A stretch of 64,000 nucleotides of DNA from Candidatus Omnitrophota bacterium (GTDB taxonomy: Bacteria > Omnitrophota > Gorgyraeia > Gorgyraeales > Gorgyraeaceae), in the NCBI GenBank assembly GCA_043814965.1, contig JBDRJN010000006.1, forward strand, positions 7,838 through 71,837. Direction: 5' to 3'. Under the pieces are notes generated by a model. The model was not told where the DNA came from. It ran no database searches and saw nothing but the letters and a program-made list of their open reading frames with translations. A program made the translations under genes and the position numbers. Numbering within the stretch: the first letter of the stretch is position 1; each line of letters begins with the position of its first letter. Of this stretch, positions 6 through 63,662 are shown piece after piece.

Positions 6-3000
6 GTGGAAAAATCAGACAGTTACTTTTCCATACTTGACGGCGGAGAAGAATATGATGATAAGGGAAGAATAACGCAAGATAATAAGATCATAAAATA
101 CGGAAACGGAAAGACGAAAAGTATAAACATAACGTATGTATATAATGGCAATAGCCAAAAAGCTGCCAGGATAATAGGAAATATGATCATCTCGCAGGAC
201 AAAGCAAAAAAGTCCATAGCCATAAGCGACAGGCCTCTGAGCGTAGCGTTCGGCAGAGACGGCAATATAGACTGGTCAACAGCGCGATATGTAGATAACG
301 ACGGCAATCTTACTGACGAAGCTCCTCCGACATCAATATCTGCTACCTTGTATAATAAGAAAGGCAAGCAGGATCTTCCCGAAGCCCCTGTCATAGGCGG
401 AAGCGTAGTTGTCCTGCCTGATAATCAGCGCGTTGTCAGTGAAGACAGCAGGGTATATGCGAATATTATTTCTTTTATCTCTGAAGCTGATAAGTGCAGG
501 GCCAATGATAGAGATAAGATCCTTCCTAATATCCACCAGATAATATCTACCAGGACCAATGTCCCAGCAGGAGAGAATACCTACACTACTACGATCACCT
601 ATACTATATATGACAATAAGGGCAATCCTCTGATAACCGGCAATAAGGATGCATGGAGCAATGCTTCGTGGGCCAGCGAATCAGACAATTATATATTTAA
701 TGGGGACGGGTATACGTATTATAGAAGCGCTTCTTTTATGAGTCCCGAAGATTTCTTAGCAGCCAATCCTGAAGCAACGAGTGGCCAGATAGAGGAAAAC
801 AGAGAAAAATGGGAGGCATTCAAGCAGTCTGAACACGAAGAAGTCTCTAATATGGACAATATAGGTGAAGTCATTATTAGAAAAGACGACCCAGGTAATT
901 TAATATATAGGAAGGTAGACCTTAAAGTGGGCAGTGATGCTGCTAAGTCTATCATACAGGAAGCAGGTAAGGCTGACCCTAAATTTGCAGATAATGTAAA
1001 AGGTGTATCTATCTATGTAGATGCGGAGAATAATATAACCTATCATATATCGGGTGAGAATGATGAGGTTATCGCAATGAGTGTAACGGAAAAGCAAGAA
1101 GATGAAAGCGTAAAGACAGGATGGAGTGACGGCAATAATACCTATATACTGAATGCTGAAAAACATGCTTATGAACTTACAAGGGTCAGTGTATATAACC
1201 CAGATCTACTGCCTAAAGGCGCGAATAAAAGCATAAAGAATTTTGCTGATAGTAACTGGGATAAGACACTCAGTACATTTAAATCTATCAATAAAGATGC
1301 TGCGCATGTCGACGCAGGCCAGATACAAAGGATCACGCTTGTAAAGGACGGAGAATCCTGGGTCGCCCAAGCTGACATCTCAGACGTTGACAACAAGATA
1401 CTGAATGGTTTAAACATAAAAGGCATAGAGTTGAATACGCAGAACATTGTGCGTGCTGTAATGTTTGTAAGTAAGGGCAGAGCAACATCCAATTTTATAG
1501 ATGCGGACGGAAGGATCCTCTATGTCGTGGAGCATAAAGGCGGTAAATATAATCTTATAAGAAGTGTATGTTATAATCCAGAGTTTGAAGGCATGTCAGA
1601 TAAAGCTACAGCTAGACAGAAAAAGGCTGCTCAGGAGAATTGGGATAATCTATTTACAGCTTATGTTGCCAAAAACCCGGGATTTGACGATGCCAAATCA
1701 GGTGACTTAACTGAGATAATGATAGTGAGGTCAGAGGATGGCGATTCATTTGACCTTATAGCAAGCCTGAAAGAAGGCAGTGATGGTTTTAATGCTTCTA
1801 TAGAGAAGTTTAAGAAAGTCGAGAGAATGTTCAGCGATGAGATCTCTGTACCTGATAAGCGCGAAATCAAGACTGTACAAATAAGAAAGACCCAAAAAGG
1901 CAAAAAGACAGATTATGCTTATATTTTCTTGGATGAAAAGGGCGATTTGATAGCAGCAGGCAATGAAAAATACTGGATGACCGCTGGCGCAGAGCATATA
2001 TATGAATACGATGAAACTGCTGAGAAAAAGTATAAACATATTGAGCAGGGTATCATGGATGAGAAGGATAAAGGGAAAAATCCTGAAAAGTGGAACGCCT
2101 TGGTGAATACTGCCATGAAATTCCTCCCAGAGCTCCAAGGCCATACAGCTAACGAGATAGAGCCGCAATTAAAAGAGATCAGATTTATCAGGATCAACGG
2201 AGAATTTTCTAGCTGCAGAGTGACTCTAAAGCAAGGCACTATAGCTGAGAAGATTATAAAGGGTTTTCCGTCTAACTTGACAGAAGGAAAGAAAAATAGC
2301 GTAAAATTCGTAGTCATTCATAGGACTTCGAAAGAAGGATCATTAGCTTATTACCTCTATAATAAGCTTGATAAAGCCCCTATAGGAGTCGAGAACCCTA
2401 ATAAGTGGATAGTAGGCAATAGATTTAACCTGAAAAATGGAAGCGAGGAACATAAAAAGCTAGTAGAGGCATCCAATAAGGATATAGATAATATAAACAA
2501 TTCCAACAAGAAGACGCCTTACGAAGTCTCTTTATCATCTTCCGGAGATAGAAATAAGACTATTCCTAACCTCAAGATAGATGAGGTTAGGATAGAGGGA
2601 GAGATTACAGCGGATAGCAGGGTGATCTATACAATTTATCATAATGATAGTAAGGTTATGGTTGGTTCTCCTGGAGGCCAGTGGAAGATAGGAGATGAGG
2701 CTTTTGTAAAGATAGGCCTATACCCTGAAGAATTCTTAAAGTCTAATCCTGACGCGACAGAAGATGAAATAATGCAAAACAAAACTAAAGGCGTAAAATG
2801 GCAGGATAGGGGCTTATATATAAAGAACTTAAAGGATGGAATAGGGCCGCAGATAAGCAATATGCTGGAAGCAGGCGCAATAGATGAGGAGCGTTTAAAC
2901 TCATTAGGGATCCAGATCAAGAAAGGTGATAAAGATAAGCTAATAGCAGTTAAGTATAAAGAAGGCAGTTGGATCTATCTTGACGATAATGCGTCTCAGT

Positions 3001-6000
3001 TTACTGTCTTCCAGGGTTCAGGTGATGACAAGGCAGAATATGAAATAGATGTTTTAGGCAAGCTGCAGGAAATATTATTTGCAGGCGATATTGAGATGAG
3101 GATGAGATCAGAAAATCTCAAGAAGTATTTTAATAGGTTGGCTGAAATGATCCCTGAATCCGACAAGGATAAAGTCTCTACAGATAATATAGAGATATGC
3201 AAAAGTCATAGCACTACGGTCATTCGTTTTAAACCAAAAGGGAAAGACTGGATACAGCTTACATCGAACCCTGATTTAAAACCTATAGAGTTACTTTCTT
3301 ATCTGGAGAGCATGACTGAGGCAAGAGGAGAATTTTTAATGAACCTACTTGGATTTTTAGTAAAAAAATCCCCGGATGCCTTGCCTGAAGACGTGAAACT
3401 CGTAAAGAAAAATAATACTACGCATATCTATTATAAAGGCATAGACCTTACAGATCCGAAAATAGAACCTACGTTATTACTCTCTTGTTTGGACAGGATA
3501 TTTTTTGGAAATAGATTGGAGAGCTTTTTACCTACTGTAGATGGCAACATAACTGAAAATGAAAAGATACTGCGCATTGACCATGTCCTTCGTTTAGAAG
3601 AAATGACCGAAAAGACAATCCTTGACTCCAAAGACTTCAAAATTGTCTGGCTACGAGGGGATACTAAAGAGACCAAAACAAATGGAAAATGGTACGTTGT
3701 TCCTAAAGGATCTATCTTTTCAGGATCAACTATAACTTTTACCAAATATAAATTAATGCGCGATGAAGAAGTCCCAATCGAGGTCAATTATAATGTAAAT
3801 GATAAAAAACAATATAAATTAGGCGATAAGGTAGTAGACGGAAAAGGAACTTGCTATACTTGTGTTCTTGGCCGAGACAAAAAGAGATACTGGGCTAAGA
3901 CAGATGAAATAGAGAGTGCAACTAAATGGGTAACAAAGAAGATCCTGAATAGTTCAGCGTATGAGATCATTGGCTTAGGAGATAGGGCTTTAATACCAGA
4001 AAAACTTTATGAAAAGATAACTTCTATTAATTGGGGAACACACCTTGATAAAGCAGAATGCCAGGAAGAACAGATAGAGATGTTTGAGGCAATCATAGAG
4101 ATAGTAAAGGAAAAATATGAAGATGCCAAGGCAGCAGCCTATAGGAGCGGAGCAAGTGTAACTTCAGGAGGCTATGTAAGTACAGATCCTGTGGCAAGAA
4201 GAAAAGTAGAAAGAGTTAAAAATTTACTTAATACTTTAACTGGCAGATTAGAACAGATGAAAGGCAGGGAATGGGATGCAAAGAGTAAAAAATGGATAAG
4301 ACGTAAAGATAAAAAATGGCTGCGCTGGGGCGAAGGAAATATAGGATATCAGACCACAACAACCCTGGTCCCGCATCCAGACAAGACTTTGAAAGCTGTA
4401 CGAAAAACCCTAACAGATGAAGAGCTTTTAAGGGAAATAAACGAGGTGACCGAGAATGATGCAGCTGAAGTCCACGGTGAGGGACTTGAGGCTTATGAAG
4501 AATATGTAGTTAAAGGAGTAGATAAGATAAGAGAGGATCTGAACAAGTTGCGTGAATTAAAGAAGGATAATTATAATAAAGGCAAGGCTAAAAAAGAAGC
4601 GCTTGATATGGCTGGCGCTATAGAGGGAGATTTTCAGAACATTAAGACAGCAGGCGCATTGATATATGCTTCCTGTATGAAATATGCGAACATAGAAAGT
4701 ACTTTGACGCAAAACCAGACTATTACCCAGAAGCTGGCAGGAACAGACGCAGGGCTACTTTTTAATTATGGGAAGAAACAGATACAAAGATTAAGAGCTA
4801 TTCAGAAAAATTTAAGAAAATGTATTATATCAATAAAATTAGGCAACATAAATGACGCGTCAGTCCTATATAACAGGACAGTTGGTTTGAACGATGCAAA
4901 CCTTAAAGAGGCGATGAAGGATTTTAGAGCCGCTAAGTTTGTGGCAGGCCTGGTTGACATGGTTATTGAATGGGCTGTTATTGCGCTTTTTACTTGGGGT
5001 GTTGGCAGCGCTCTTAACGGAGTTAAAGCAGCCTTTACAATAGCTGGCAGAAGCCTTGAGAGAACAGGAGAGATCTTAGCGAGATTAAATAAATTAATGC
5101 AGTTAAAGAAGATCGATGCTGCCAGGAAGATAGAGATACTGGCAAAGATCGGTATCAAAGGCAGGCATCTATGGAGATGGAATGCCCTGAATACATTGCT
5201 GGGTTATGGCGGCAGGCTAGGCCTTGTGAATTTCATGAAGACCAGCCTTAAAGCCGCAGTACATTTAGGCGGATTTAACGCAACGCTTGGAGCCATAGTC
5301 ATGCCGCTCATGTTTGGCGCAGGAGACCCGAATGACCCTGGTAGAAGGCATTTACTTCTTTTTTCAGAAGGATTCACCATGGAGGCGCTCCTTGAATACT
5401 TAGAATTCGTAAAAGGCGGAGTACAGTTTGCATTAACAGCTGCTCCGTTCTTTGGGATGGCAGTCCCGGGCGTTGGTATCGGGCTTGGTATAAGGGGTAT
5501 AACCAGAAAGGTAGCTGGCCTCTTAAAAGATAAAATGATAAGATTTTCTTCATGGGTTGGCCGCGCAGGAGATAGGTTGACAAAGATAGTCCTGGCGTTT
5601 AGTGAAGAGGGTGGAGTTGTAAATTTTGTAAGCAAAGGATTTTCACCTGATAAAAGAGGTTATTTGATGGCAGCTCAAGGTACAGGAGGTTTTGCCGGTT
5701 TTATCGGAAAACAAGCTCATATGGTAGATAGCGTATGGACCTTTCATCTTGCTACCCAGCTGGGAGAAACGCTTGGCAGGTTGACCGGTAATGAAACGTT
5801 TGCAAAATTCCTGGGAGCGATCAGCATGTTCCTCGTCCCTACAAGAGTAGCTATGCATAGCGGAGGCATGATCGGTTTCAGGGACGTAAATGGCAAGACC
5901 ATTAAATTTGACAAGATCAAGGATATATCAAAGAGAATAGAAACATCACGCGAACTATTAAAAGCACAGCAAGAAGGCAAGCTGGAAGGCGTTAGCGCCA

Positions 6001-56044: not shown

Positions 56045-57370
56045 ATGGGGTGTCGGTGTAGCAGATCTATGCTTTTTTTTATGACGAGTTTGTTCACTGT
56101 TTTTTTAAGTATTTTCTTGATCAGCTGTTCTCCTACAGCAAAACCTCAGGATTCAAATACAATAACTATATGGCACTGGATGAGCGATAGAGAGGGAGCT
56201 TTTAAAGAACTTGCAAGGATATATGAAGAAGAAAAAGGAATAAAAGTAAATTTTGAGCTTTATGCCCCGTCAGAGGTTTATACACAGAAGATAAGGGCCG
56301 CGGCGCAGACTAATACCCTCCCAGATATATTCGGCATACTTGGTAAAAAAAGAGATCTTGCTAGTTTTATAAAAGCAGGGCATATATATAATCTTACAGA
56401 AGATATGAAAGCCAATAATAGCGAATGGGAGAACAGGCTTTTTAATAAGGCTCTCTCTGTGAATGAATTTAAATCAGAAAATAGTTTTGACATAGAGCCT
56501 GGCATATATGGAATACCTCTGGATGTAACTAATCTCCAGATGCTATATAATAAGGACCTGTTAAGGCGGGTAGGATGGCCTGAAGACAGCCCTCCTGAGA
56601 CATGGGAGGAGTTTATAGAAGCCTCAAGGCTTCTTAATGAAAATAATATCCAGGGGTTTATAAGCGGCTGGGGAGAGATATGGATGATAGATTGCTTTGC
56701 TAGTAACTATGCATTCAATATAATGGGTGAGAAAAAAGTCCTTGATACCATAAAAGGCAAGGTGCCTTATACAGATCCTGATTGGATAAAGGTCTTTGGC
56801 CTATTTCGCCAGATGAGAGACGAAAAGATGCTGGCAAAGGGTGTTGTTACAATGGTCAATAAGACAGCAGAACAGCTTTTTGCAAATTCAAAGGCATGTT
56901 TTGCATTTAACGGATCTTGGTGTGTAAATGTCTATAGCGGCATGAACCCGGACCTAAATTACGGAGCAATGCTTCCTCCTAAAGTTCTTGACAAAAACCC
57001 GATGGTTATATGGGGAGGCGCTGGATCGAGCTTTATGGTCAATAACAGGGTCAGTGGCCCAAGGAAGGCGGTTGATTTTCTAAGATGGCTTACAGATACT
57101 CCGCAGCAAAGCTACCTTGCCGCAGCCACAAGAAACCTTCCTTCCAACAAAGAAAGCTTGAAAGATATCCCAGATATACTATTTCAATTCGCGGATGATA
57201 TGGATAATACTACGCACCCAAACGTATGGGGCGTTTCTGAGTTCCCGGAAGTTATAGAGACGTTCAACAAGGGCATACAGTCGATCATTATAGGCGAAAA
57301 GACGCCAGAAGGATTAGCTGGCGAGGTACAGGCAGTTAAGATGCGGGAGATGGAGAAGGCAGGACAATAA
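56045..57370 (+). CDS. ABC transporter substrate-binding lipoprotein, carbohydrate (family 1, MalE-like)
   Basis: N-terminal signal with lipobox 'FLISC'. Size and composition typical of sugar SBPs. Immediately followed by two MalF/MalG-type permeases. GGAGG at 56036-56040 (a short spacer, so ATG 56069 is an alternative start). Confidence 0.75.
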   Translation: MGCRCSRSMLFFMTSLFTVFLSIFLISCSPTAKPQDSNTITIWHWMSDREGAFKELARIYEEEKGIKVNFELYAPSEVYTQKIRAAAQTNTLPDIFGILGKKRDLASFIKAGHIYNLTEDMKANNSEWENRLFNKALSVNEFKSENSFDIEPGIYGIPLDVTNLQMLYNKDLLRRVGWPEDSPPETWEEFIEASRLLNENNIQGFISGWGEIWMIDCFASNYAFNIMGEKKVLDTIKGKVPYTDPDWIKVFGLFRQMRDEKMLAKGVVTMVNKTAEQLFANSKACFAFNGSWCVNVYSGMNPDLNYGAMLPPKVLDKNPMVIWGGAGSSFMVNNRVSGPRKAVDFLRWLTDTPQQSYLAAATRNLPSNKESLKDIPDILFQFADDMDNTTHPNVWGVSEFPEVIETFNKGIQSIIIGEKTPEGLAGEVQAVKMREMEKAGQ

Positions 57371-57396
57371 CGGGTTACGGGTTACGGGGTACGGGT
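57371..57396 (+). repeat. G-tract repeat 'CGGGTTACGGGTTACGGGGTACGGGT' (G3N4G3N4G4N3G3: canonical G-quadruplex-forming pattern) filling the whole SBP-permease intergenic gap
   Basis: Read directly; 69% GC in an otherwise AT-rich context, abutting the ATG at 57397. Confidence 0.8.
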
Positions 57397-58287
57397 ATGA
57401 AGGTCCAAAAAAATATACTTGAAAATTACTTATTTATATTGCCAGCAGTACTGATATTTTCTCTATTTTATATATATCCTTTCTACAAGGTTTTTACGCT
57501 TTCTTTGTGTCAATGGGATGGCATAGCTGGTTTTAGTTTTGTAAAAAGCTTTGTAGGTTTAAGGAACTTTAAGGAACTTTTGTTTCAAGATAGAGTATGG
57601 TGGCAGGCTATGGGGCATGCAGGATATATCACACTTATTGCCCTGACATTTCAAAATGCATTAGCCTTGAGCCTGGCTTGGGCGTGCGACAGGGATATAA
57701 AAGGAGGCAATATATATAGGGTAATATTCTATCTTCCGCCTGTGTTATCAGAGATAGTAGTGGGGCTTGTGTGGCGCTGGATATATGACGGAAATTACGG
57801 CCTCCTGAATCACTGGCTTACTAATATGGGATTGCATCATTTGGTAAGAGATTGGCTTTCGGACCCAAAGACAGCTTTAACAGCAGTCGCTGCTATCCAT
57901 TGCTGGAAGGGTTTTGGATGGGGATTTATTATATTTTTAGCAGGCTTACAGACTATACCTAGGCAGCTCTATGAAGCAGGAAGAGTAGATGGGGCGAATT
58001 CATGGCAGATGTTCAAGAGCATCACTTTACCTTTGATGGTCCCTGTATTTATATTGGTATCTGTACTTACGATATTAGGCACTATGCAGGTATTTGTATT
58101 GATACTTTCTATGACAAATGGCGGCCCGGGTTATCATACAGAGGTCCCCGTCACAAGGATCCTGACCACAATGGTAGGTTCTTCAAGGTTTGGTTATGCG
58201 TGCAGCCAGGGGATAGTATTTGGAGTTATATTATTAGCGATTTCATTTATACAGATAAAGCTCTCTAAACATACGTATAAAACATGA
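57397..58287 (+). CDS. ABC transporter permease (MalF/UgpA-type, binding-protein-dependent transport system inner-membrane component)
   Basis: Six hydrophobic helices; EAA loop 'EAGRVDGANSWQMFKSITLPL'. Confidence 0.85.
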   Translation: MKVQKNILENYLFILPAVLIFSLFYIYPFYKVFTLSLCQWDGIAGFSFVKSFVGLRNFKELLFQDRVWWQAMGHAGYITLIALTFQNALALSLAWACDRDIKGGNIYRVIFYLPPVLSEIVVGLVWRWIYDGNYGLLNHWLTNMGLHHLVRDWLSDPKTALTAVAAIHCWKGFGWGFIIFLAGLQTIPRQLYEAGRVDGANSWQMFKSITLPLMVPVFILVSVLTILGTMQVFVLILSMTNGGPGYHTEVPVTRILTTMVGSSRFGYACSQGIVFGVILLAISFIQIKLSKHTYKT

Positions 58288-58365
58288 ATAGTCATGATAT
58301 CAAAAATCAAAGATTAAAATGCAAAATTATAGATTAAAATTCAAAAATAAAAAAGAGAGAAATTA

Positions 58366-59214
58366 ATGGAAGAGACTGCTATATACAAACTAAGGCATTT
58401 TACTAAACACGCGCTTATGCATATATTTTTAGCAAGCGTAGCAGTCACATGCGTGTTCCCTCTTCTCTGGATGATAGGCTCAGCTCTCAAGACGCAGGAG
58501 ACTATATTCAGCGATATGAGTATAATCCCCAGAAACCCTATGTGGAGCAATTTTGTCATGGCCTGGACCAAGGGAGGATTCGGGATGTATTTTTTTAATA
58601 GTGTTATTTATACAGTGACAGTCGTGACTGGCATTGTCATAATCGCATCTTTGGCTGCATTTGCATTTTCACGGCTTAAGTTTCCTGGTAAGAATATCTT
58701 GTTCTATATGTTTTTAGCGGCTATGATGATACCTCTTCCAGGCAGCTTTGTGCCCTTGTATGTACTTATGACAAAGCTCCATCTTGTAAATACAAGGATC
58801 GGTTATATACTATGCATGATAAACGTAGGGCTTTCTTTCAGCATATATTTACTTAAGACATTTTTTGACAAGATGCCTTCTGCGCTTGAAGATGCAGCTA
58901 GGATCGATGGATGCAATAAACTCGGCATCTGGTGGAATGTTGCCTTGCCGCTCGCAAGGCCTGCTATAGCAGTGATAGTGATATTCAATTCTTTAAATGT
59001 ATGGAATGAATATATACTTGCGACACTTATATTCTCAAGCAAGTCTTTAATGCCTCTGCAAAGGGCTCTTATGATATTTCAGGGTACTCACATAACAGAG
59101 TATCCGCTTTTGATGGCAGGCATCACAATAACAGTTTTGCCTATAATATCAGTATATTTATTTATGCAGAAACATATTATAAAGGGTATAACAGCAGGGA
59201 TTATTGTCGGGTAA
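58366..59214 (+). CDS. ABC transporter permease (MalG/UgpE-type)
   Basis: EAA loop 'EDAARIDGCNKLGIWWNVALPLARP'; six TM helices; operonic with the preceding permease. Confidence 0.85.
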   Translation: MEETAIYKLRHFTKHALMHIFLASVAVTCVFPLLWMIGSALKTQETIFSDMSIIPRNPMWSNFVMAWTKGGFGMYFFNSVIYTVTVVTGIVIIASLAAFAFSRLKFPGKNILFYMFLAAMMIPLPGSFVPLYVLMTKLHLVNTRIGYILCMINVGLSFSIYLLKTFFDKMPSALEDAARIDGCNKLGIWWNVALPLARPAIAVIVIFNSLNVWNEYILATLIFSSKSLMPLQRALMIFQGTHITEYPLLMAGITITVLPIISVYLFMQKHIIKGITAGIIVG

Positions 59215-59216
59215 CG

Positions 59217-59235
59217 CCTGCCTGCCGCAGGCAGG
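59217..59235 (+). terminator. GC-rich perfect hairpin (9-bp arms 'cctgcctgc' / 'gcaggcagg') directly after the permease stop; no U-tract
   Basis: 59217-59225 is the reverse complement of 59227-59235. Followed by G-tracts rather than T-run, so terminator function is uncertain. Confidence 0.3.
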
Positions 59236-59307
59236 GGGTACAGGGTACGGGAAATGGAGTAGAGATGGCTGATTACGGGTTACGGGTTACGGGGTACGGG
59301 GTACGGG
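59234..59307 (+). repeat. Second cluster of GGGTTAC/GGGGTAC G-tract repeats (G-quadruplex-type), flanking and overlapping the start of the glycoside hydrolase gene
   Basis: 'GGGGGTACAGGGTACGGG' 59234-59251 and 'CGGGTTACGGGTTACGGGGTACGGGGTACGGG' 59276-59307. Same unit as 57371-57396. Confidence 0.8.
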
Positions 59308-61613
59308 TTTGCGCGGCAATACTATTGTTAACATCATGGGCTGGGCCTGTATCATGCGAAGAAGTCGATACTTTAGGATTAACTGTCTCTCAAGAAAAGC
59401 CCTTTTCTCCCAATGAGCTTATATTACGCGCATGGGAGGCATGGGGCGCAAAGGATTATGAGAAGACATTTGAATATACAACTAGATGTATCGAGCTTTA
59501 TTCTGATGAGGCAAAAAAAGAGCAGGCCCTTCTAAAAGGTTTTCCCGCTATAGATGCAATAGAGCAATATGCGGCTTTAAATGCTGTCGGGACAAGTTTT
59601 TTTATACAGGGAGAGGCGTATCTATTGAATGGTAAAATAGATGAAGCCAGGAAGGCATTTAATACAGCTATAACAGAATATAGTTATTCTCAGAACTGGG
59701 ATCCGAGGGGATGGTTCTGGAGCGTGAAAGAAAAGAGCATTGCCAGCCTTGAAAAGCTTGATAAAAAAGAGGAGATAGATGAAAAAAAGAAGATAGCTAT
59801 AGCAATACCTAAGACAAAGGTCACTCTTTATGACGCTGGTAAAGAAGAGATGATCGATTATGAAAAATACGGGGAATTTAAGAATGTCGGTAAGTATAAT
59901 TATAAATATGTGGTCAATGACCAAGAAGGCCTTTCTCAGGCAGCGGGGGAAGGGGTCTATCCTAACACCTCAAGCATCAATTGGGACCAGAATTATATAA
60001 GAGTAAAAAAAGAAGGAAAGCTCAAAGGCAATCATTGGGACTTTATAAATACAGATGACCTGGAAGCAAATTTTTACAAATGGAGCACTGCGCCAGAACC
60101 TACAGGTGTCAAGCTCTTTTATGCAGCTATAGCGCTTGAAAGATCAGGTTTATTAAAACATGCGATAAAGACCTATTATTCTATAGCGGTGCATTTTCCT
60201 AAATCAGTAGGATGGACTTATTTTCGCACGCCCTGGTATATCGCTCAGGTCGCGCTTGATAGGATAGATTATATATTAAGGAATAACCCAGAGCTTGGAA
60301 TGGAGTTAAAAGATGCGGGTATATATATCGAGAATGGATTCGATAACAATATAGCAAATGACATATTCGTAGTAAATCCTGGAAAAATCGTAAAGCTTGG
60401 TATTGTAGATAGGATGAAGAATAAATTATCAGGCAAAAAGGGTGTTGAATTAGGGGGTGTGATAAAGCAAGTCGGCGACGGCAGGGTAGACCTTGTGAAG
60501 TTCAAGAATGGACACTGGCAGCTGAGGTTGGAAGGCAGGCCTTATCTGATAAAAGCCCTTGCGTATACGCCAAATAGAGTTGGGCAAAGTCCTGATGAAG
60601 GTACGTTGGAAGATTGGATGCAGGCAGACTATAATGGCAATGGAAAGTGTGACGCAGTGTACGACAGCTGGGTGGATAAGAATTATAACAATATAAAGGA
60701 TAAAGACGAAGAAGTGGTAGGAGATTTTCAGTTATTGAAAGACATGAACTGTAATACTATCAGGCTATATCACCATGCATCCAATAAAGAGCTCTTGAGG
60801 GACCTGTATAATAATTACGGTATAATGGCGATAATGGGAGATCTTTTGGGGGCCTATACCGTAGGAAGCGGCGCTGGCTGGTACGAAGGGACTGATTATA
60901 AAAATGAGGAACATAGAAGAAACATGCTAGAGAGCGTACGTAAGATGGTAGAGGAGTTCAAGGATGAGCCTTATGTACTTTTCTGGATGCTTGGTAATGA
61001 AAATAATTATGGTGTTGCAAATAATGCCAAAAAAGACCCAGCGACTTACTATGAGTTTGTGAATGAAGCAAGCAGGATGATAAAGTCTATTGACAGGGAC
61101 CATCCAGTTGCAGTGTGCAGCGGGGACTTATTGTTCCTCGACGAATTTAGTAAAAGCTGCCCGGACGTAGATATATACGGGGCAAATGCATATAGAGGTA
61201 AACACGGGTTTGGAAAGAGTTTTTGGAACAATGTAAAGATCGTGTGCGATAAGCCTGTAATAATAACAGAATACGGCTGTCCCAGCTATATGGAAGGCAG
61301 ATCAAGGGAATTTAGCGAAGACAGGCAGGCAGAGTATCTCAAGGGCAATTGGGAAGATATAGCGTATAATACAGCAGGCAATAAAGGCGTTGGTAATGCG
61401 ATAGGAGGAGTGCTTTTTGAATGGATTGATGAGTGGTGGAAGGCTTATGAACCGTCAGTACACGATGCTGCTAGAAATTGGTCTGGCCCGTTCCCCGATG
61501 GCTGGAACTATGAAGAATGGCTTGGGATAGTAAGCCAGGGGAATGGAGAGCATAGCCCTTTTCTAAGGCGGCTTAAAAAAGCTTATTTTGTTTATAAAGA
61601 ACTTTGGATATAA
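59265..61613 (+). CDS. Secreted glycoside hydrolase, clan GH-A TIM-barrel catalytic core (GH2/GH5-like) fused to an N-terminal helical (TPR-like) region
   Basis: Acid/base motif 'VLFWMLGNENNYG' (WxxGNE) and nucleophile motif 'VIITEYGCPS' (compare GUS 'MITEYGVD'); 'FEWIDEWWK'; N-terminal hydrophobic signal. Paralogous to 62448-63662. Confidence 0.6.
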   Translation: MADYGLRVTGYGVRVCAAILLLTSWAGPVSCEEVDTLGLTVSQEKPFSPNELILRAWEAWGAKDYEKTFEYTTRCIELYSDEAKKEQALLKGFPAIDAIEQYAALNAVGTSFFIQGEAYLLNGKIDEARKAFNTAITEYSYSQNWDPRGWFWSVKEKSIASLEKLDKKEEIDEKKKIAIAIPKTKVTLYDAGKEEMIDYEKYGEFKNVGKYNYKYVVNDQEGLSQAAGEGVYPNTSSINWDQNYIRVKKEGKLKGNHWDFINTDDLEANFYKWSTAPEPTGVKLFYAAIALERSGLLKHAIKTYYSIAVHFPKSVGWTYFRTPWYIAQVALDRIDYILRNNPELGMELKDAGIYIENGFDNNIANDIFVVNPGKIVKLGIVDRMKNKLSGKKGVELGGVIKQVGDGRVDLVKFKNGHWQLRLEGRPYLIKALAYTPNRVGQSPDEGTLEDWMQADYNGNGKCDAVYDSWVDKNYNNIKDKDEEVVGDFQLLKDMNCNTIRLYHHASNKELLRDLYNNYGIMAIMGDLLGAYTVGSGAGWYEGTDYKNEEHRRNMLESVRKMVEEFKDEPYVLFWMLGNENNYGVANNAKKDPATYYEFVNEASRMIKSIDRDHPVAVCSGDLLFLDEFSKSCPDVDIYGANAYRGKHGFGKSFWNNVKIVCDKPVIITEYGCPSYMEGRSREFSEDRQAEYLKGNWEDIAYNTAGNKGVGNAIGGVLFEWIDEWWKAYEPSVHDAARNWSGPFPDGWNYEEWLGIVSQGNGEHSPFLRRLKKAYFVYKELWI

Positions 61614-61699
61614 TGGAAGGAGGTGTGTTCTAAATATCAAAAATTAAATATAAAAATCAAAAATGAGAAAAGAAACATGAACCAGAAAGGAGTGGTAGT

Positions 61700-62384: not shown

Positions 62385-62425
62385 GATGGGATTTTGGCAT
62401 GGGTGACCCATGCCAAAATCCCATC
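62385..62425 (+). promoter_or_regulatory. Perfect 20-bp inverted repeat 'GATGGGATTTTGGCATGGGT g ACCCATGCCAAAATCCCATC' (operator-like palindrome or strong terminator hairpin)
   Basis: Arms 62385-62404 and 62406-62425 are exact reverse complements. Located in the 70-nt gap between the lipoprotein stop (62377) and the next GH gene start (62448); only a weak 'cttt' follows. Confidence 0.5.
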
Positions 62426-62447: not shown

Positions 62448-63662
62448 ATGAAAACAATAGGTCTTAAGATTTTATCAGTGCTTTTATTCGGCGGGTTAGT
62501 CTTCAGTGTTTTTGCGAACAGGGCTGCTAAGTCAGATCGTATCTATGTAAAGGATCTTGATAATGGAAGATCTCAATTAATAGTAAATAACAGGCCTTAT
62601 ATCATAAAGGGTGTAGTATATAGCCCTGCGCCCATAGGCATGACACATACATATAATTTTTGGTCAGATCCTAAAAAACCCTATATTGCAGACGCTAAAC
62701 TTATGAAAAAGATGGGAGTCAATACTATAAGGGTATATAAATTAGAAGGAGACCCTGAAGAAATAAAAGAGGCTATAACGTTTTTATACGATAAATATAA
62801 AATACGCGTTGCAGTAGGCCATTGGCTGGGTTTTTGGGACAATCCAAATTATGCAGACCCGGCTTTTAGAGAAAAAGTAAAACAGGATGTAATAGAGATG
62901 GTCAATACTTATAAGGACACAAAAGGTATACTATGTTGGATCCTTGGGAATGAGAATAATTTTTCCTTTACGTATGGCCCTCAGGCCGTGAATATCTGGA
63001 CCACCGACGATATAGAGGCATTAGGCGACCCGTATCTAAAAAGGCTTGAAAGGGCAAAGATATACTATTCGTTCGTGAATGAGATCTCAAGAGAGATCAA
63101 AAAGATAGACCCTGGCCATGTGACAGTCTTGGCTAATGCAGAGACCAATGATATCTGCAATATATCACCTGATATTACAAAAGATATAGACTTGTTAGGC
63201 GCCTCTGTCTATAGGGGCAAGAGTTTTGGGAGTTTCTTCAGGCATGTCCAGCTTAAATTTAGAAGGCCTGTCATGGTAACGGAATTCGGCTGTGATAGAT
63301 ATGATGCGTATCTTGATAAAGAAGATGAAAGCTCTCAGGCAGAGTTTATAAAAGCTGAATGGGAAGAGATAGAGAAAAATACTTACAAAGGCAGCGGTGT
63401 AGGGAATTGCGTAGGCGGGTTTGTATTTGAATGGACAGATGAGTGGTGGAAATACAATGAGTATTCTTCCAGCGGCTGGTATATACACGACATAGTGTCA
63501 AGCTGGTCTAACGGGGCATATTATTTTGACATAAAGGCCCCTAACAATTTTAATATAAATGAAGAGTGGTGGGGTATATGCAGTTTAGAAAAAAGAGAGG
63601 GAGCCCTTGACGAACGTAAGCCCACTAAGGCATACTTTGTGTTAAAGGAGTTGTGGAGATAA
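62448..63662 (+). CDS. Secreted glycoside hydrolase, clan GH-A TIM-barrel (paralog of the C-terminal half of 59265-61613)
   Basis: Signal peptide 'MKTIGLKILSVLLFGGLVFSVFA'; 'ILCWILGNENNFS' (acid/base), 'VMVTEFGCDRY' (nucleophile), 'FVFEWTDEWWK'. Confidence 0.6.
   Translation: MKTIGLKILSVLLFGGLVFSVFANRAAKSDRIYVKDLDNGRSQLIVNNRPYIIKGVVYSPAPIGMTHTYNFWSDPKKPYIADAKLMKKMGVNTIRVYKLEGDPEEIKEAITFLYDKYKIRVAVGHWLGFWDNPNYADPAFREKVKQDVIEMVNTYKDTKGILCWILGNENNFSFTYGPQAVNIWTTDDIEALGDPYLKRLERAKIYYSFVNEISREIKKIDPGHVTVLANAETNDICNISPDITKDIDLLGASVYRGKSFGSFFRHVQLKFRRPVMVTEFGCDRYDAYLDKEDESSQAEFIKAEWEEIEKNTYKGSGVGNCVGGFVFEWTDEWWKYNEYSSSGWYIHDIVSSWSNGAYYFDIKAPNNFNINEEWWGICSLEKREGALDERKPTKAYFVLKELWR

Follow-up and report, generated by a model that had tools for sequence, protein, structure and literature searches.

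The window analysed here is a stretch of 64,000 nucleotides (64 kb) from a Candidatus Omnitrophota bacterium (contig JBDRJN010000006.1 of GenBank assembly GCA_043814965.1), of which 55.6 kb consists of one open reading frame (ORF) and 8.4 kb of ordinary genes. The giant ORF is followed by a PilZ gene, a gene for a solute-binding protein (SBP), two ABC-transporter permease genes, a gene for a hydrolase with TPR and GH2-type parts, a gene for a 225-aa protein (U225) and a second hydrolase-like gene. Two of the approximately seven junctions in the window carry tandem arrays of the seven-nucleotide unit GGGKTAC (GGGTTAC or GGGGTAC), and the nature, origin and possible role of these arrays are the subject of this work. 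It is well supported that they represent a genome-specific GGGKTAC family, which is a G-rich member of the dispersed class of bacterial heptameric simple sequence repeats (SSRs). The arrays and the genes adjoining them are the following.

56045-57370, + strand: SBP gene (SBP_bac_8/SBP_bac_1), with its stop codon TAA at 57368-57370
57371-57396, + strand: array 1, C-GGGTTAC-GGGTTAC-GGGGTAC-GGGT, with four G-tracts, which forms the whole 26-nt spacer between the SBP stop and the permease 1 ATG
57397-58287, + strand: ABC permease 1 gene (BPD_transp_1), with its ATG at 57397 abutting array 1
58366-59214, + strand: ABC permease 2 gene, with its stop codon TAA at 59212-59214
59235-59311, + strand: array 2, with 11 heptamer units in a single register
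59265-61613, + strand: hydrolase gene, for a secreted TPR plus GH2-type TIM-barrel glycoside hydrolase

Anatomy of the two arrays

Array 2 has an upstream part, GGGGTACAGGGTACGGG (59235-59251), and a downstream part, (TGATTAC)GGGTTACGGGTTACGGGGTACGGGGTACGGGTTTG (59270-59311). Its units 1 and 2 (59235-59248) read GGGGTAC and AGGGTAC, units 3 to 6 (59249-59276) are degenerate (GGGAAAT, GGAGTAG, AGATGGC and TGATTAC), and units 7 to 11 (59277-59311) are two copies of GGGTTAC, two of GGGGTAC and a final GGGTTTG. Read in register, the middle units agree with 17 of 28 consensus positions, as compared to 6-11 of 28 in the other six registers. A 29-nt stretch is common to both sites with 97% identity, array 1 matching 59272-59300 at 28 of 29 positions, and Tandem Repeats Finder (TRF) gives a period of 7 at both sites, with 3.9 copies in array 1 and 5.3 copies in array 2. 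On the sense strand, array 1 starts 1 nt and array 2 starts 20 nt after a stop codon. Outside 57371-57396 and 59235-59311, no GGGTTAC or GGGGTAC heptamer was found on either strand of the window.

The first-pass annotation of this DNA had described array 1 as filling the gap between the SBP stop and the permease ATG, and had considered the repeats to be strongly GC-skewed and unlikely to be accidental. Direct reading of the sequence and simple statistics agree that the repeats are as described and not accidental. Allowing up to two mismatches, a 14-mer of the repeat has 8 matches in the 64 kb where 0.21 are expected, all of them within the two sites and on the + strand, and a 17-mer has 7 matches where 0.01 are expected, while GGGTWACGGG occurs 4 times against an expectation of 0.03. 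What had been taken for a two-part site around the hydrolase start codon is better described as one array of 11 units, although the repeats do flank the ATG and encode N-terminal residues (4-15). As for the suggestion of a dispersed family resembling repetitive extragenic palindromic (REP) elements, the dispersed character holds, with two junctions here and repeated occurrence in several genomes, but the resemblance does not, since neither a palindrome nor an inverted or minus-strand copy of either array was found in the window. Terminal inverted repeats and target-site duplications are absent at both sites, no Rfam covariance model matched either array at E<=1, and a terminator scan gave no intrinsic terminator at either array. 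On this anatomy, REP elements, miniature inverted-repeat transposable elements (MITEs), intrinsic terminators and known RNA families are excluded as the identity of the arrays.

With respect to G-quadruplex (G4) formation, array 1 has four G-tracts, the segment 59277-59307 has five and 59235-59251 has three, which means that the G4 consensus earlier assigned to both sites applies to the first two segments but not to the last. When G4 energies are included in the ViennaRNA folding, the minimum free energy (MFE) structure of both arrays contains a three-layer G4, array 1 giving -8.4 kcal/mol with the G4 as compared to -2.4 kcal/mol without it. The G4 capacity of the arrays is real in silico; a role as RNA structure is inferred.

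The position of array 1 with respect to translation signals is unusual within the operon. A Shine-Dalgarno (SD) sequence GGAG or GGAGG is found 5-9 nt before the start of the other operon genes, permease 2 having only GAGAG, whereas permease 1 lacks a GGAG and has only the G-runs of array 1 in front of its ATG. In array 2, both the SD sequence GGAG (59256-59259) and the ATG (59265-59267) of the hydrolase gene lie inside the degenerate units 3 to 6. The ORF starting at 59265 reads MADYGLRVTGYGVRVC, and units 6 to 11 encode residues 4-15 (YGLRVTGYGVRV) of the signal-peptide n-region, including both arginines. The N-terminus is MADYGLRVTGYGVRVCAAILLLTSWAGPVSC followed by EE, which matches the (A/C)-EE/ED at the signal-peptide end in orthologues, and the frame that begins at 59265 continues without a stop into the conserved mature part. 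As far as can be read from the sequence, array 2 has been exapted: it supplies the putative ribosome-binding site (RBS), the start codon and part of the predicted signal peptide of the hydrolase. It may thus serve as an example of a microsatellite turned into the 5' end of a gene via repeat expansion, and arrays of this kind may account for odd N-termini and 'missing' SD sites in the annotation of Omnitrophota genomes.

Heptamer arrays in related operons and in other genomes

A metagenome scan with permease 2 yielded 80 orthologous operons with identical gene order and 67-87% identity (numbered loci, L), the closest relative to the window having at best 87% protein identity. In about 23 of 55 of these operons, the SBP stop and the permease 1 start overlap or abut, and in front of the hydrolase gene of relatives the ATG often overlaps the permease 2 stop as ATGA. 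Comparison with these sequences indicates that both window arrays replace a stop/start overlap that is present in many orthologous operons.

Tandem arrays are far denser in the junctions of the orthologous operons (2.41 per kb) than in the aligned coding sequence (0.13 per kb). Their TRF periods in the 80 loci have a sharp maximum at 7, with 107 arrays, as compared to 53 at 6, 46 at 8, 18 at 3 and 9 at 9, and one or more arrays lie between permease 2 and hydrolase in 30 of 59 non-redundant loci. The units are specific for the genome (CACAAGT, GCAAGGTT, GCGCACAA, AAGGTCAC, AAACGCA, AAAGGCA, TAGCTTA and others), and one unit can be present at two or three junctions of a single genome (L121, L140, L185). 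A junction array in relatives is commonly followed by its own inverted copy, resulting in long hairpins. Between SBP and permease 1, such pairs are present in L132, L134/L140, L138 and L185, while L128 has a palindrome at this position and five GGTNNNN units occupy the entire gap in L151, as in the window. Of the 80 loci, only L166 and L167 have G3N4-type arrays at the two junctions that carry GGGKTAC in the window, and these consist of a different unit. Between SBP and permease 1, two other loci harbor a 133-nt element with inverted ends GTCATTGCGAGG...CTCGCAATGAC (L131 2793-2925; L133 4970-5102), which by its appearance belongs to a widespread MITE-like family, and L121, the closest relative of the window operon, has approximately 1.5 kb of extra sequence there (2207-3727).

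At the hydrolase gene, the arrays of relatives extend into the coding sequence. Hydrolase orthologues have a purine-rich 7-8-nt array right after the start codon and then its inverted copy, both within the signal peptide (L121 5463-5568; L136 6851-6968; L137 6848-6946; L138 6644-6759; L140 2434-2551; L142 6843-6966; L167 2051-2171; L172 1660-1818; L177 1851-1938; L183 1091-1198; L190 1045-1146). Owing to the overlap of the hydrolase ATG with the upstream stop, the purine-rich forward array is read as an n-region rich in K, R, H and Q, and the inverted array gives an h-region rich in L, F, V and C, with the frame open into the conserved mature protein. In the mRNA, the forward and inverted arrays of the hydrolase orthologues are predicted to form a long hairpin.

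Comparison of near-identical contigs illustrates how these segments are exchanged. L170 (6380-6600) and L172 (1590-1880), which lie on contigs that are 98.4% identical, have the region from the permease 2 stop to the signal-peptide cleavage site wholly replaced: one has a plain signal peptide and the other an array of six TAGCTTA units with an inverted array, and the two sequences agree again from precisely GCGAAGAG onwards, which encodes (A/C)-E-E at the signal-peptide end. L128 and L136 (97.4% identical) have unrelated hairpin elements between permeases 1 and 2, and one of these contigs has an 81-nt insertion at the SBP stop (L128 4860-5010 vs L136 5005-5075). Within this insertion is the perfect palindrome TTCGGCGATCGGAA ATTC TTCCGATCGCCGAA, and with a 12-nt direct duplication of AAGAAACAATAA on its flanks the insertion resembles one of the MITE type with target duplication.

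The window operon is similar to its relatives in that, besides the GGGKTAC sites, it has A-rich heptamers at two junctions and a 20-bp hairpin at a fifth. There is good support for the view that, in this lineage, the operon's short junctions act as hot spots and have been filled time and again with 7-8-nt tandem arrays, each genome using a unit of its own. The remaining features of the window are listed below.

6-55586, + strand: giant ORF of 18,526 uninterrupted codons, probably extending past the left edge of the window
58297-58354, + strand: degenerate A-rich heptamer array of the AATCAAA type, 8 copies with 68% matches, filling the permease 1/permease 2 junction
59217-59235, + strand: GC-rich hairpin CCTGCCTGC-C-GCAGGCAGG of 8-9 bp, directly after the permease 2 stop and overlapping the first G-run of array 2
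61632-61664, + strand: A-rich heptamer array, AAAAATC, 4.9 copies, at the hydrolase/U225 junction
62385-62425, no strand assigned: perfect 20-bp hairpin with a 1-nt loop, GATGGGATTTTGGCATGGGT / ACCCATGCCAAAATCCCATC, at the junction of U225 and the second hydrolase-like gene
62448-63662: second hydrolase-like gene, encoding 404 aa (GH404)

The A-rich copies at 58297-58354 and 61634-61688 share 71% identity over 55 nt. Since the hairpin at 59217-59235 is followed by G-runs and not by a U-tract, it does not qualify as an intrinsic terminator. The one at 62385-62425 has a terminator-like score on the minus strand only, and its weak Rfam score as a plant miRNA precursor, which is below the threshold, is certainly spurious. 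The C-terminal part of the hydrolase (61326-61441) and GH404 (63336-63451) are paralogous, with 73-74% DNA identity in blocks of about 50 nt and approximately 30% protein identity between the paralogues in relatives. The C-terminal 5,000 aa of the giant ORF include four dynein/midasin-type AAA_5 domains along with one VWA, one HD and one proline dehydrogenase domain, and the first 5,000 aa gave no Pfam match at E<=1e-5. The locus fits the layout described for Omnitrophota giant genes, downstream of which pilZ, SBP, sugar transport and glycoside hydrolase genes are conserved (bioRxiv 10.1101/2023.11.21.568195), and this synteny by itself makes an Omnitrophota host very probable.

GGGKTAC arrays also occur in other bacteria. 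A scan of one genome per species revealed at least 120 loci with three units, in Bacteroidota, Chloroflexota, Planctomycetota, Actinomycetota, Proteobacteria and Omnitrophota. Among the matches listed, several unrelated genomes contain such arrays repeatedly, the most frequent size is four units (31 of 100 arrays), and the 65 intergenic arrays comprise 23 between convergent, 35 between co-directional and 7 between divergent genes. When these arrays are oriented by their G strand, 46 of the 65 lie nearer to the 5'-side ORF than to the 3'-side ORF (median gaps 48 vs 102 nt), and the stop codon of the upstream ORF is sometimes located within the first degenerate unit. Tight abutment to starts of minus-strand ORFs is unreliable, because (GTAACCC)n has a TAA in all frames and will end any frame.

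Control heptamers were counted in viral contigs as arrays of three units. For units with a G-run, there were 15 loci with GGGTTAC, 63 with GGGTTCA, 15 with GGGATTC, 7 with GGGCTTA and 10 with GGGTCTA; for units without a G-run, 2 loci had GTGTGAC and 66 had GTGGTCA. These counts rule out that GGGTTAC is a special, universally favoured or horizontally spread unit. In repeat-rich genomes, many heptamer units are found side by side in single loci. The general phenomenon is the presence of tandem arrays with heptamer period, and G4 capacity belongs to the GGGKTAC unit in particular. Some of the IMG/VR contigs (L273, L257 and L230 with GGGTTCA; L315, L316 and L321 with GTGGTCA) carry one array at many sites and on both strands, with up to 9 heptamer-array matches in 13 kb, and because of these many separate sites dispersed heptamer families seem to be present also on putative phage or mobile DNA.

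A separate observation concerns an Omnitrophota metagenome-assembled genome (L013, JAUXSB010000037.1, sites 764-798 and 987-1021). Here, the coding strand has (TTTTCTG)5, which is translated to the hydrophobic core (CFFLVSVFWFLFSG) of a signal peptide in front of an MHISEG N-terminus, and a GGGGTAC/GGGTTAC/GGGATAC array lies antisense within an ORF, where it is read as YPVSRNPYPVP just before a PLVIGVPVGF stretch. We take these proteins to be CbiM-like (MHISEG) and CbiC-like, with PLVIGVPVGF presumably as a conserved motif.

Possible origin and role of the window arrays

The explanation that we prefer, with a probability of about 0.55 for the whole, is that the arrays belong to a heptamer SSR family that was homogenised and copied within the window lineage, that array 2 was exapted as the 5' end of the hydrolase gene, and that array 1 acts as G4 punctuation. 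An array that was already present at the permease 2/hydrolase junction of the clade would have been homogenised to GGGKTAC, after which a near-identical 29-nt copy would have been placed between the SBP stop and the permease 1 start, by conversion or insertion. The array after the permease 2 stop aligns with arrays at the same position in L138 (…ACAGGGGGCAAGGTACAAGGGAC…) and L136 (AAGGTTACAAGGTTGC…), of which the units AGGTTACA/AGGTTAC resemble GGGTTAC, so that array 2 has probably descended, with homogenisation, from an array common to the clade. Array 1 is more easily understood as copied in than as a product of local slippage, because the ancestral junction consists of a few A/T-rich bases that offer no seed, and because of its match to 59272-59300. 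The mRNA of array 1 may fold into a three-tetrad G4 at the SD position, which could act in the same way as the hairpin elements at this junction in relatives and, by analogy, as the REP sequences in malE-malF. Such structured punctuation would uncouple and lower the translation of permease 1 relative to that of SBP, and could shield the upstream SBP message from 3' exonucleases.

Several results weigh against this explanation. A GGGKTAC array is present at neither junction in any of the 80 orthologous operons, which implies that the operon works without such arrays and rules out that they are a conserved cis-regulatory element of the operon. The junction arrays of relatives are mostly not G-rich, (GGGTTAC)3 is no commoner in viral contigs than units of the same composition, and since units with or without a G-run are equally common there, G4 formation is not the property that the arrays share. 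The folding energies are not unusual when compared with composition-matched shuffles (z = -1.3 and 0.0), so thermodynamics alone gives no argument for selection. Furthermore, the status of a genome-wide family rests on two junctions in 8.4 kb of ordinary genes and on analogy, and no function has been established for the Xanthomonas and Nostoc repeats of this class, which were reported in detail in 2015 (Rehm et al. 2015; PMC4692102). These results also bear on what the first-pass annotation had proposed. The preference for gene starts that it had asked about is replaced by proximity to the ORF on the 5' side, often to its stop codon, among the matches listed. Translational coupling was another proposed role, but the arrays break a coupling that overlapping or abutting orthologues have. 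G4 potential is not what the arrays share with those of relatives, and of the two conditions under which that annotation would have given up its interpretation, absence from the rest of the genome and lack of conservation in relatives, the second applies. The fast exchange of junction cassettes between relatives that are 97-98% identical would be compatible with the recombination hotspot that it had also considered.

A serious competitor, even if we lean towards the scheme outlined above, takes the arrays to be microsatellites of a neutral or mildly selfish kind, which arise and spread by replication slippage, template switching or gene conversion, and which are tolerated where they are harmless, with no selected role. 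The G4 potential, and the SD sequence and ATG within array 2, would then be by-products, and the sites would be no more than short spacers and low-constraint signal peptides. This is in agreement with the absence of GGGKTAC arrays from the orthologous operons, with units that differ between genomes and turn over between relatives that are 97-98% identical, with the coexistence of many units in single loci of repeat-rich genomes, with the observation that any heptamer unit is common in large collections, and with the failure to find a function for the class in Xanthomonas and Nostoc (PMC4692102). The absence from orthologues, together with the unremarkable frequency of the unit, keeps this alternative strong. 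On the other hand, the preference for four units, the avoidance of divergent regions and the polarity, as seen among the matches listed and by Rehm et al., suggest that selection acts on placement or structure, array 2 is demonstrably used for the SD sequence, the ATG and signal-peptide residues, and arrays at the same place in half of the orthologous hydrolases point to something beyond tolerance.

We regard it as rather unlikely that the arrays are dedicated RNA G4 riboregulators, selected for G4s that attenuate or couple downstream translation. Array 1 does have its four G-tracts over the RBS position and 1 nt from the ATG, a G4 is part of the predicted MFE structure, the GGGKTAC arrays elsewhere (among the matches listed) have a mode of four units, and G4 formation with 4-nt loops is indicated by circular dichroism (CD) for sister repeats (PMC4692102). 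However, the same junctions of relatives have arrays without G-runs, hairpins or nothing, a G-run is unnecessary for heptamers to be abundant, and the energies are unexceptional. Moreover, 59235-59251 has three tracts only, and the downstream part of array 2 is within coding sequence, and a stable G4 at that position would impair translation of the hydrolase gene itself.

The comparison of relatives also leads to a broader idea, to which we would attach little weight at this stage. Omnitrophota-type genomes may have an active process, undescribed so far, that installs and exchanges genome-specific 7-8-nt junction arrays with inverted copies, as a cassette that would double as RNA punctuation (a hairpin, or a G4 in the window) and as a ready-made signal peptide. 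The window arrays would then be a version in which the inverted arm has decayed. Such a process is suggested by the frequency of arrays in hydrolase genes (30 of 59), by the swap between L170 and L172, by the presence of one unit at up to three junctions per genome, and by the case of L013.

A phase-variation switch, in which gain or loss of 7-nt units in 59277-59304 would shift the hydrolase frame and changes in array 1 would alter the stop-start distance, is improbable. The unit length is not a multiple of three, the array lies within hydrolase codons 4-15, and the hydrolase is a secreted, surface-related protein encoded beside a giant gene of the predation type, all of which would suit a switch. 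But with 4-5 units there are few for efficient slippage, the two pairs of near-identical relatives with arrays show no clear difference in unit number (L177 and L179 differ by a partial-copy boundary, 4.6 vs 4.5 copies, and the junction of L134 and L140 is identical), and Rehm et al. deemed phase variation unlikely for the sister class (PMC4692102).

There is little in favour of the idea that a trans-acting protein with affinity for single-stranded nucleic acids (S1, Csp or CsrA-like) binds to the arrays as tandem sites, in line with what was proposed for TAACTGA repeats. In agreement with the TAACTGA pattern, array 1 has its end 1 nt before the ATG and takes the place of a canonical SD sequence, but there is no candidate protein, the units vary by genome with several families within one operon, and among the matches listed it is the upstream ORF, and not the downstream start, to which GGGKTAC arrays are nearer. 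Finally, a mobile element of the MITE type or of the type of REP sequences and bacterial interspersed mosaic elements (BIMEs), moved by a transposase, can practically be set aside, since the window arrays are direct repeats without an inverted arm, terminal inverted repeats or target duplication, even though relatives have palindromic insertions at the same junction (L128 vs L136 with its 12-nt duplication, and the 133-nt element of L131 and L133).

Whichever explanation applies, the operon constitutes a natural experiment, with dozens of orthologues that have no array, a hairpin-forming pair or a G4-type array at the same two junctions. The SBP:permease stoichiometry, mRNA stability and protein export are therefore directly comparable between them.

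Comparison with known repeat systems

Dispersed heptamer arrays were reportedly known from cyanobacteria (Calothrix) by 1990, when Mazel and co-workers are said to have described short tandemly repeated repetitive (STRR) heptamers in heterocystous cyanobacteria, with several unit families per genome that are dispersed and largely intergenic. These STRRs were reportedly defined by hybridisation and abundance, and a function is said not to have been established. They share with the window arrays the dispersed, tandem heptanucleotide organisation, and differ in unit sequence and phylum. Resemblance to the telomere repeat of fission yeast (GGTTAC...) and possible complementarity to the 3' region of 16S rRNA were considered and dropped, since the arrays are interstitial, short and variable in unit between genomes. 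With respect to position, there is a parallel in the REP/BIME sequences that Newbury, Higgins and colleagues reportedly found in 1987 in the malE-malF and hisJ-hisQ spacers of enterobacteria, which also lie right after the binding-protein gene of an ABC-transporter operon. A stable RNA structure at such a place can guard the upstream message and determine the SBP:permease ratio, and this is the functional analogy that we propose. REPs are imperfect palindromes that form hairpins and are associated with REP-associated tyrosine transposases (RAYT), whereas the window elements are direct repeats without an inverted copy and are therefore not members of this family.

Members of the class that were described in detail are the heptameric SSRs GGGAATC of Xanthomonas and GGGGA(C/T)T of Nostoc PCC 7120 (Rehm et al. 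2015; PMC4692102). There are approximately 90-190 copies of these dispersed per genome, four units are most frequent, they are rare between divergent genes and variable between close relatives, and for repeats with 4-nt loops there is CD evidence for G4 formation, while phase variation was judged to be unlikely (PMC4692102). The window arrays are similar in being tandem 7-nt units with a tract of 3-4 G that are G4-capable in silico, and the GGGKTAC arrays elsewhere, among the matches listed, share the four-unit mode, the proximity to the ORF on the 5' side and the rarity between divergent genes. They differ in unit (GGGTTAC/GGGGTAC instead of GGGNATC or GGGGA(C/T)T) and in host, an Omnitrophota bacterium, and in that one array lies partly within an ORF to which it gives the SD sequence, ATG and signal-peptide residues.

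In marine Beggiatoaceae, and also in some Cyanobacteria and Bacteroidetes, TAACTGA forms direct repeats of 2-6 copies that stop within a few nt of a start codon, the spacers having no canonical RBS (MacGregor 2015, PMC4679880). Array 1 shows the same arrangement, as it ends 1 nt before the ATG in a spacer without GGAG. In contrast, TAACTGA is A/T-rich, not G4-forming and contains stop codons, whereas GGGKTAC is G-rich and open in three frames, and across genomes, among the matches listed, the GGGKTAC arrays keep a shorter distance to the ORF before them than to the start that follows. For array 2, the relevant precedent is the YAPL/RU-2 MITE that forms part of a predicted signal peptide in Yersinia, as well as the RPEs of Rickettsia (Delihas 2007, PMC2229807). 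In these fusions, too, a repeat with an open frame has become the 5' part of a gene and supplies a portion of a signal peptide. They involve MITEs of 100-170 bp, however, instead of a 7-nt microsatellite, and in the relatives of the window operon it is the array and its inverted copy that encode the n- and h-regions, respectively.

A search of the accessible library for GGGTTAC or GGGGTAC arrays gave no bacterial report, and two papers on Omnitrophota giant genes, one of them bioRxiv 10.1101/2023.11.21.568195, make no mention of heptamer or junction arrays. Thus, the class is known and the GGGKTAC unit is new within it, while the contribution to a signal peptide has its precedent in MITE fusions (PMC2229807). 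The more novel observation comes from the relatives, in which cassettes of an array and its inverted copy appear to encode whole predicted signal peptides and to be swapped between near-identical strains.

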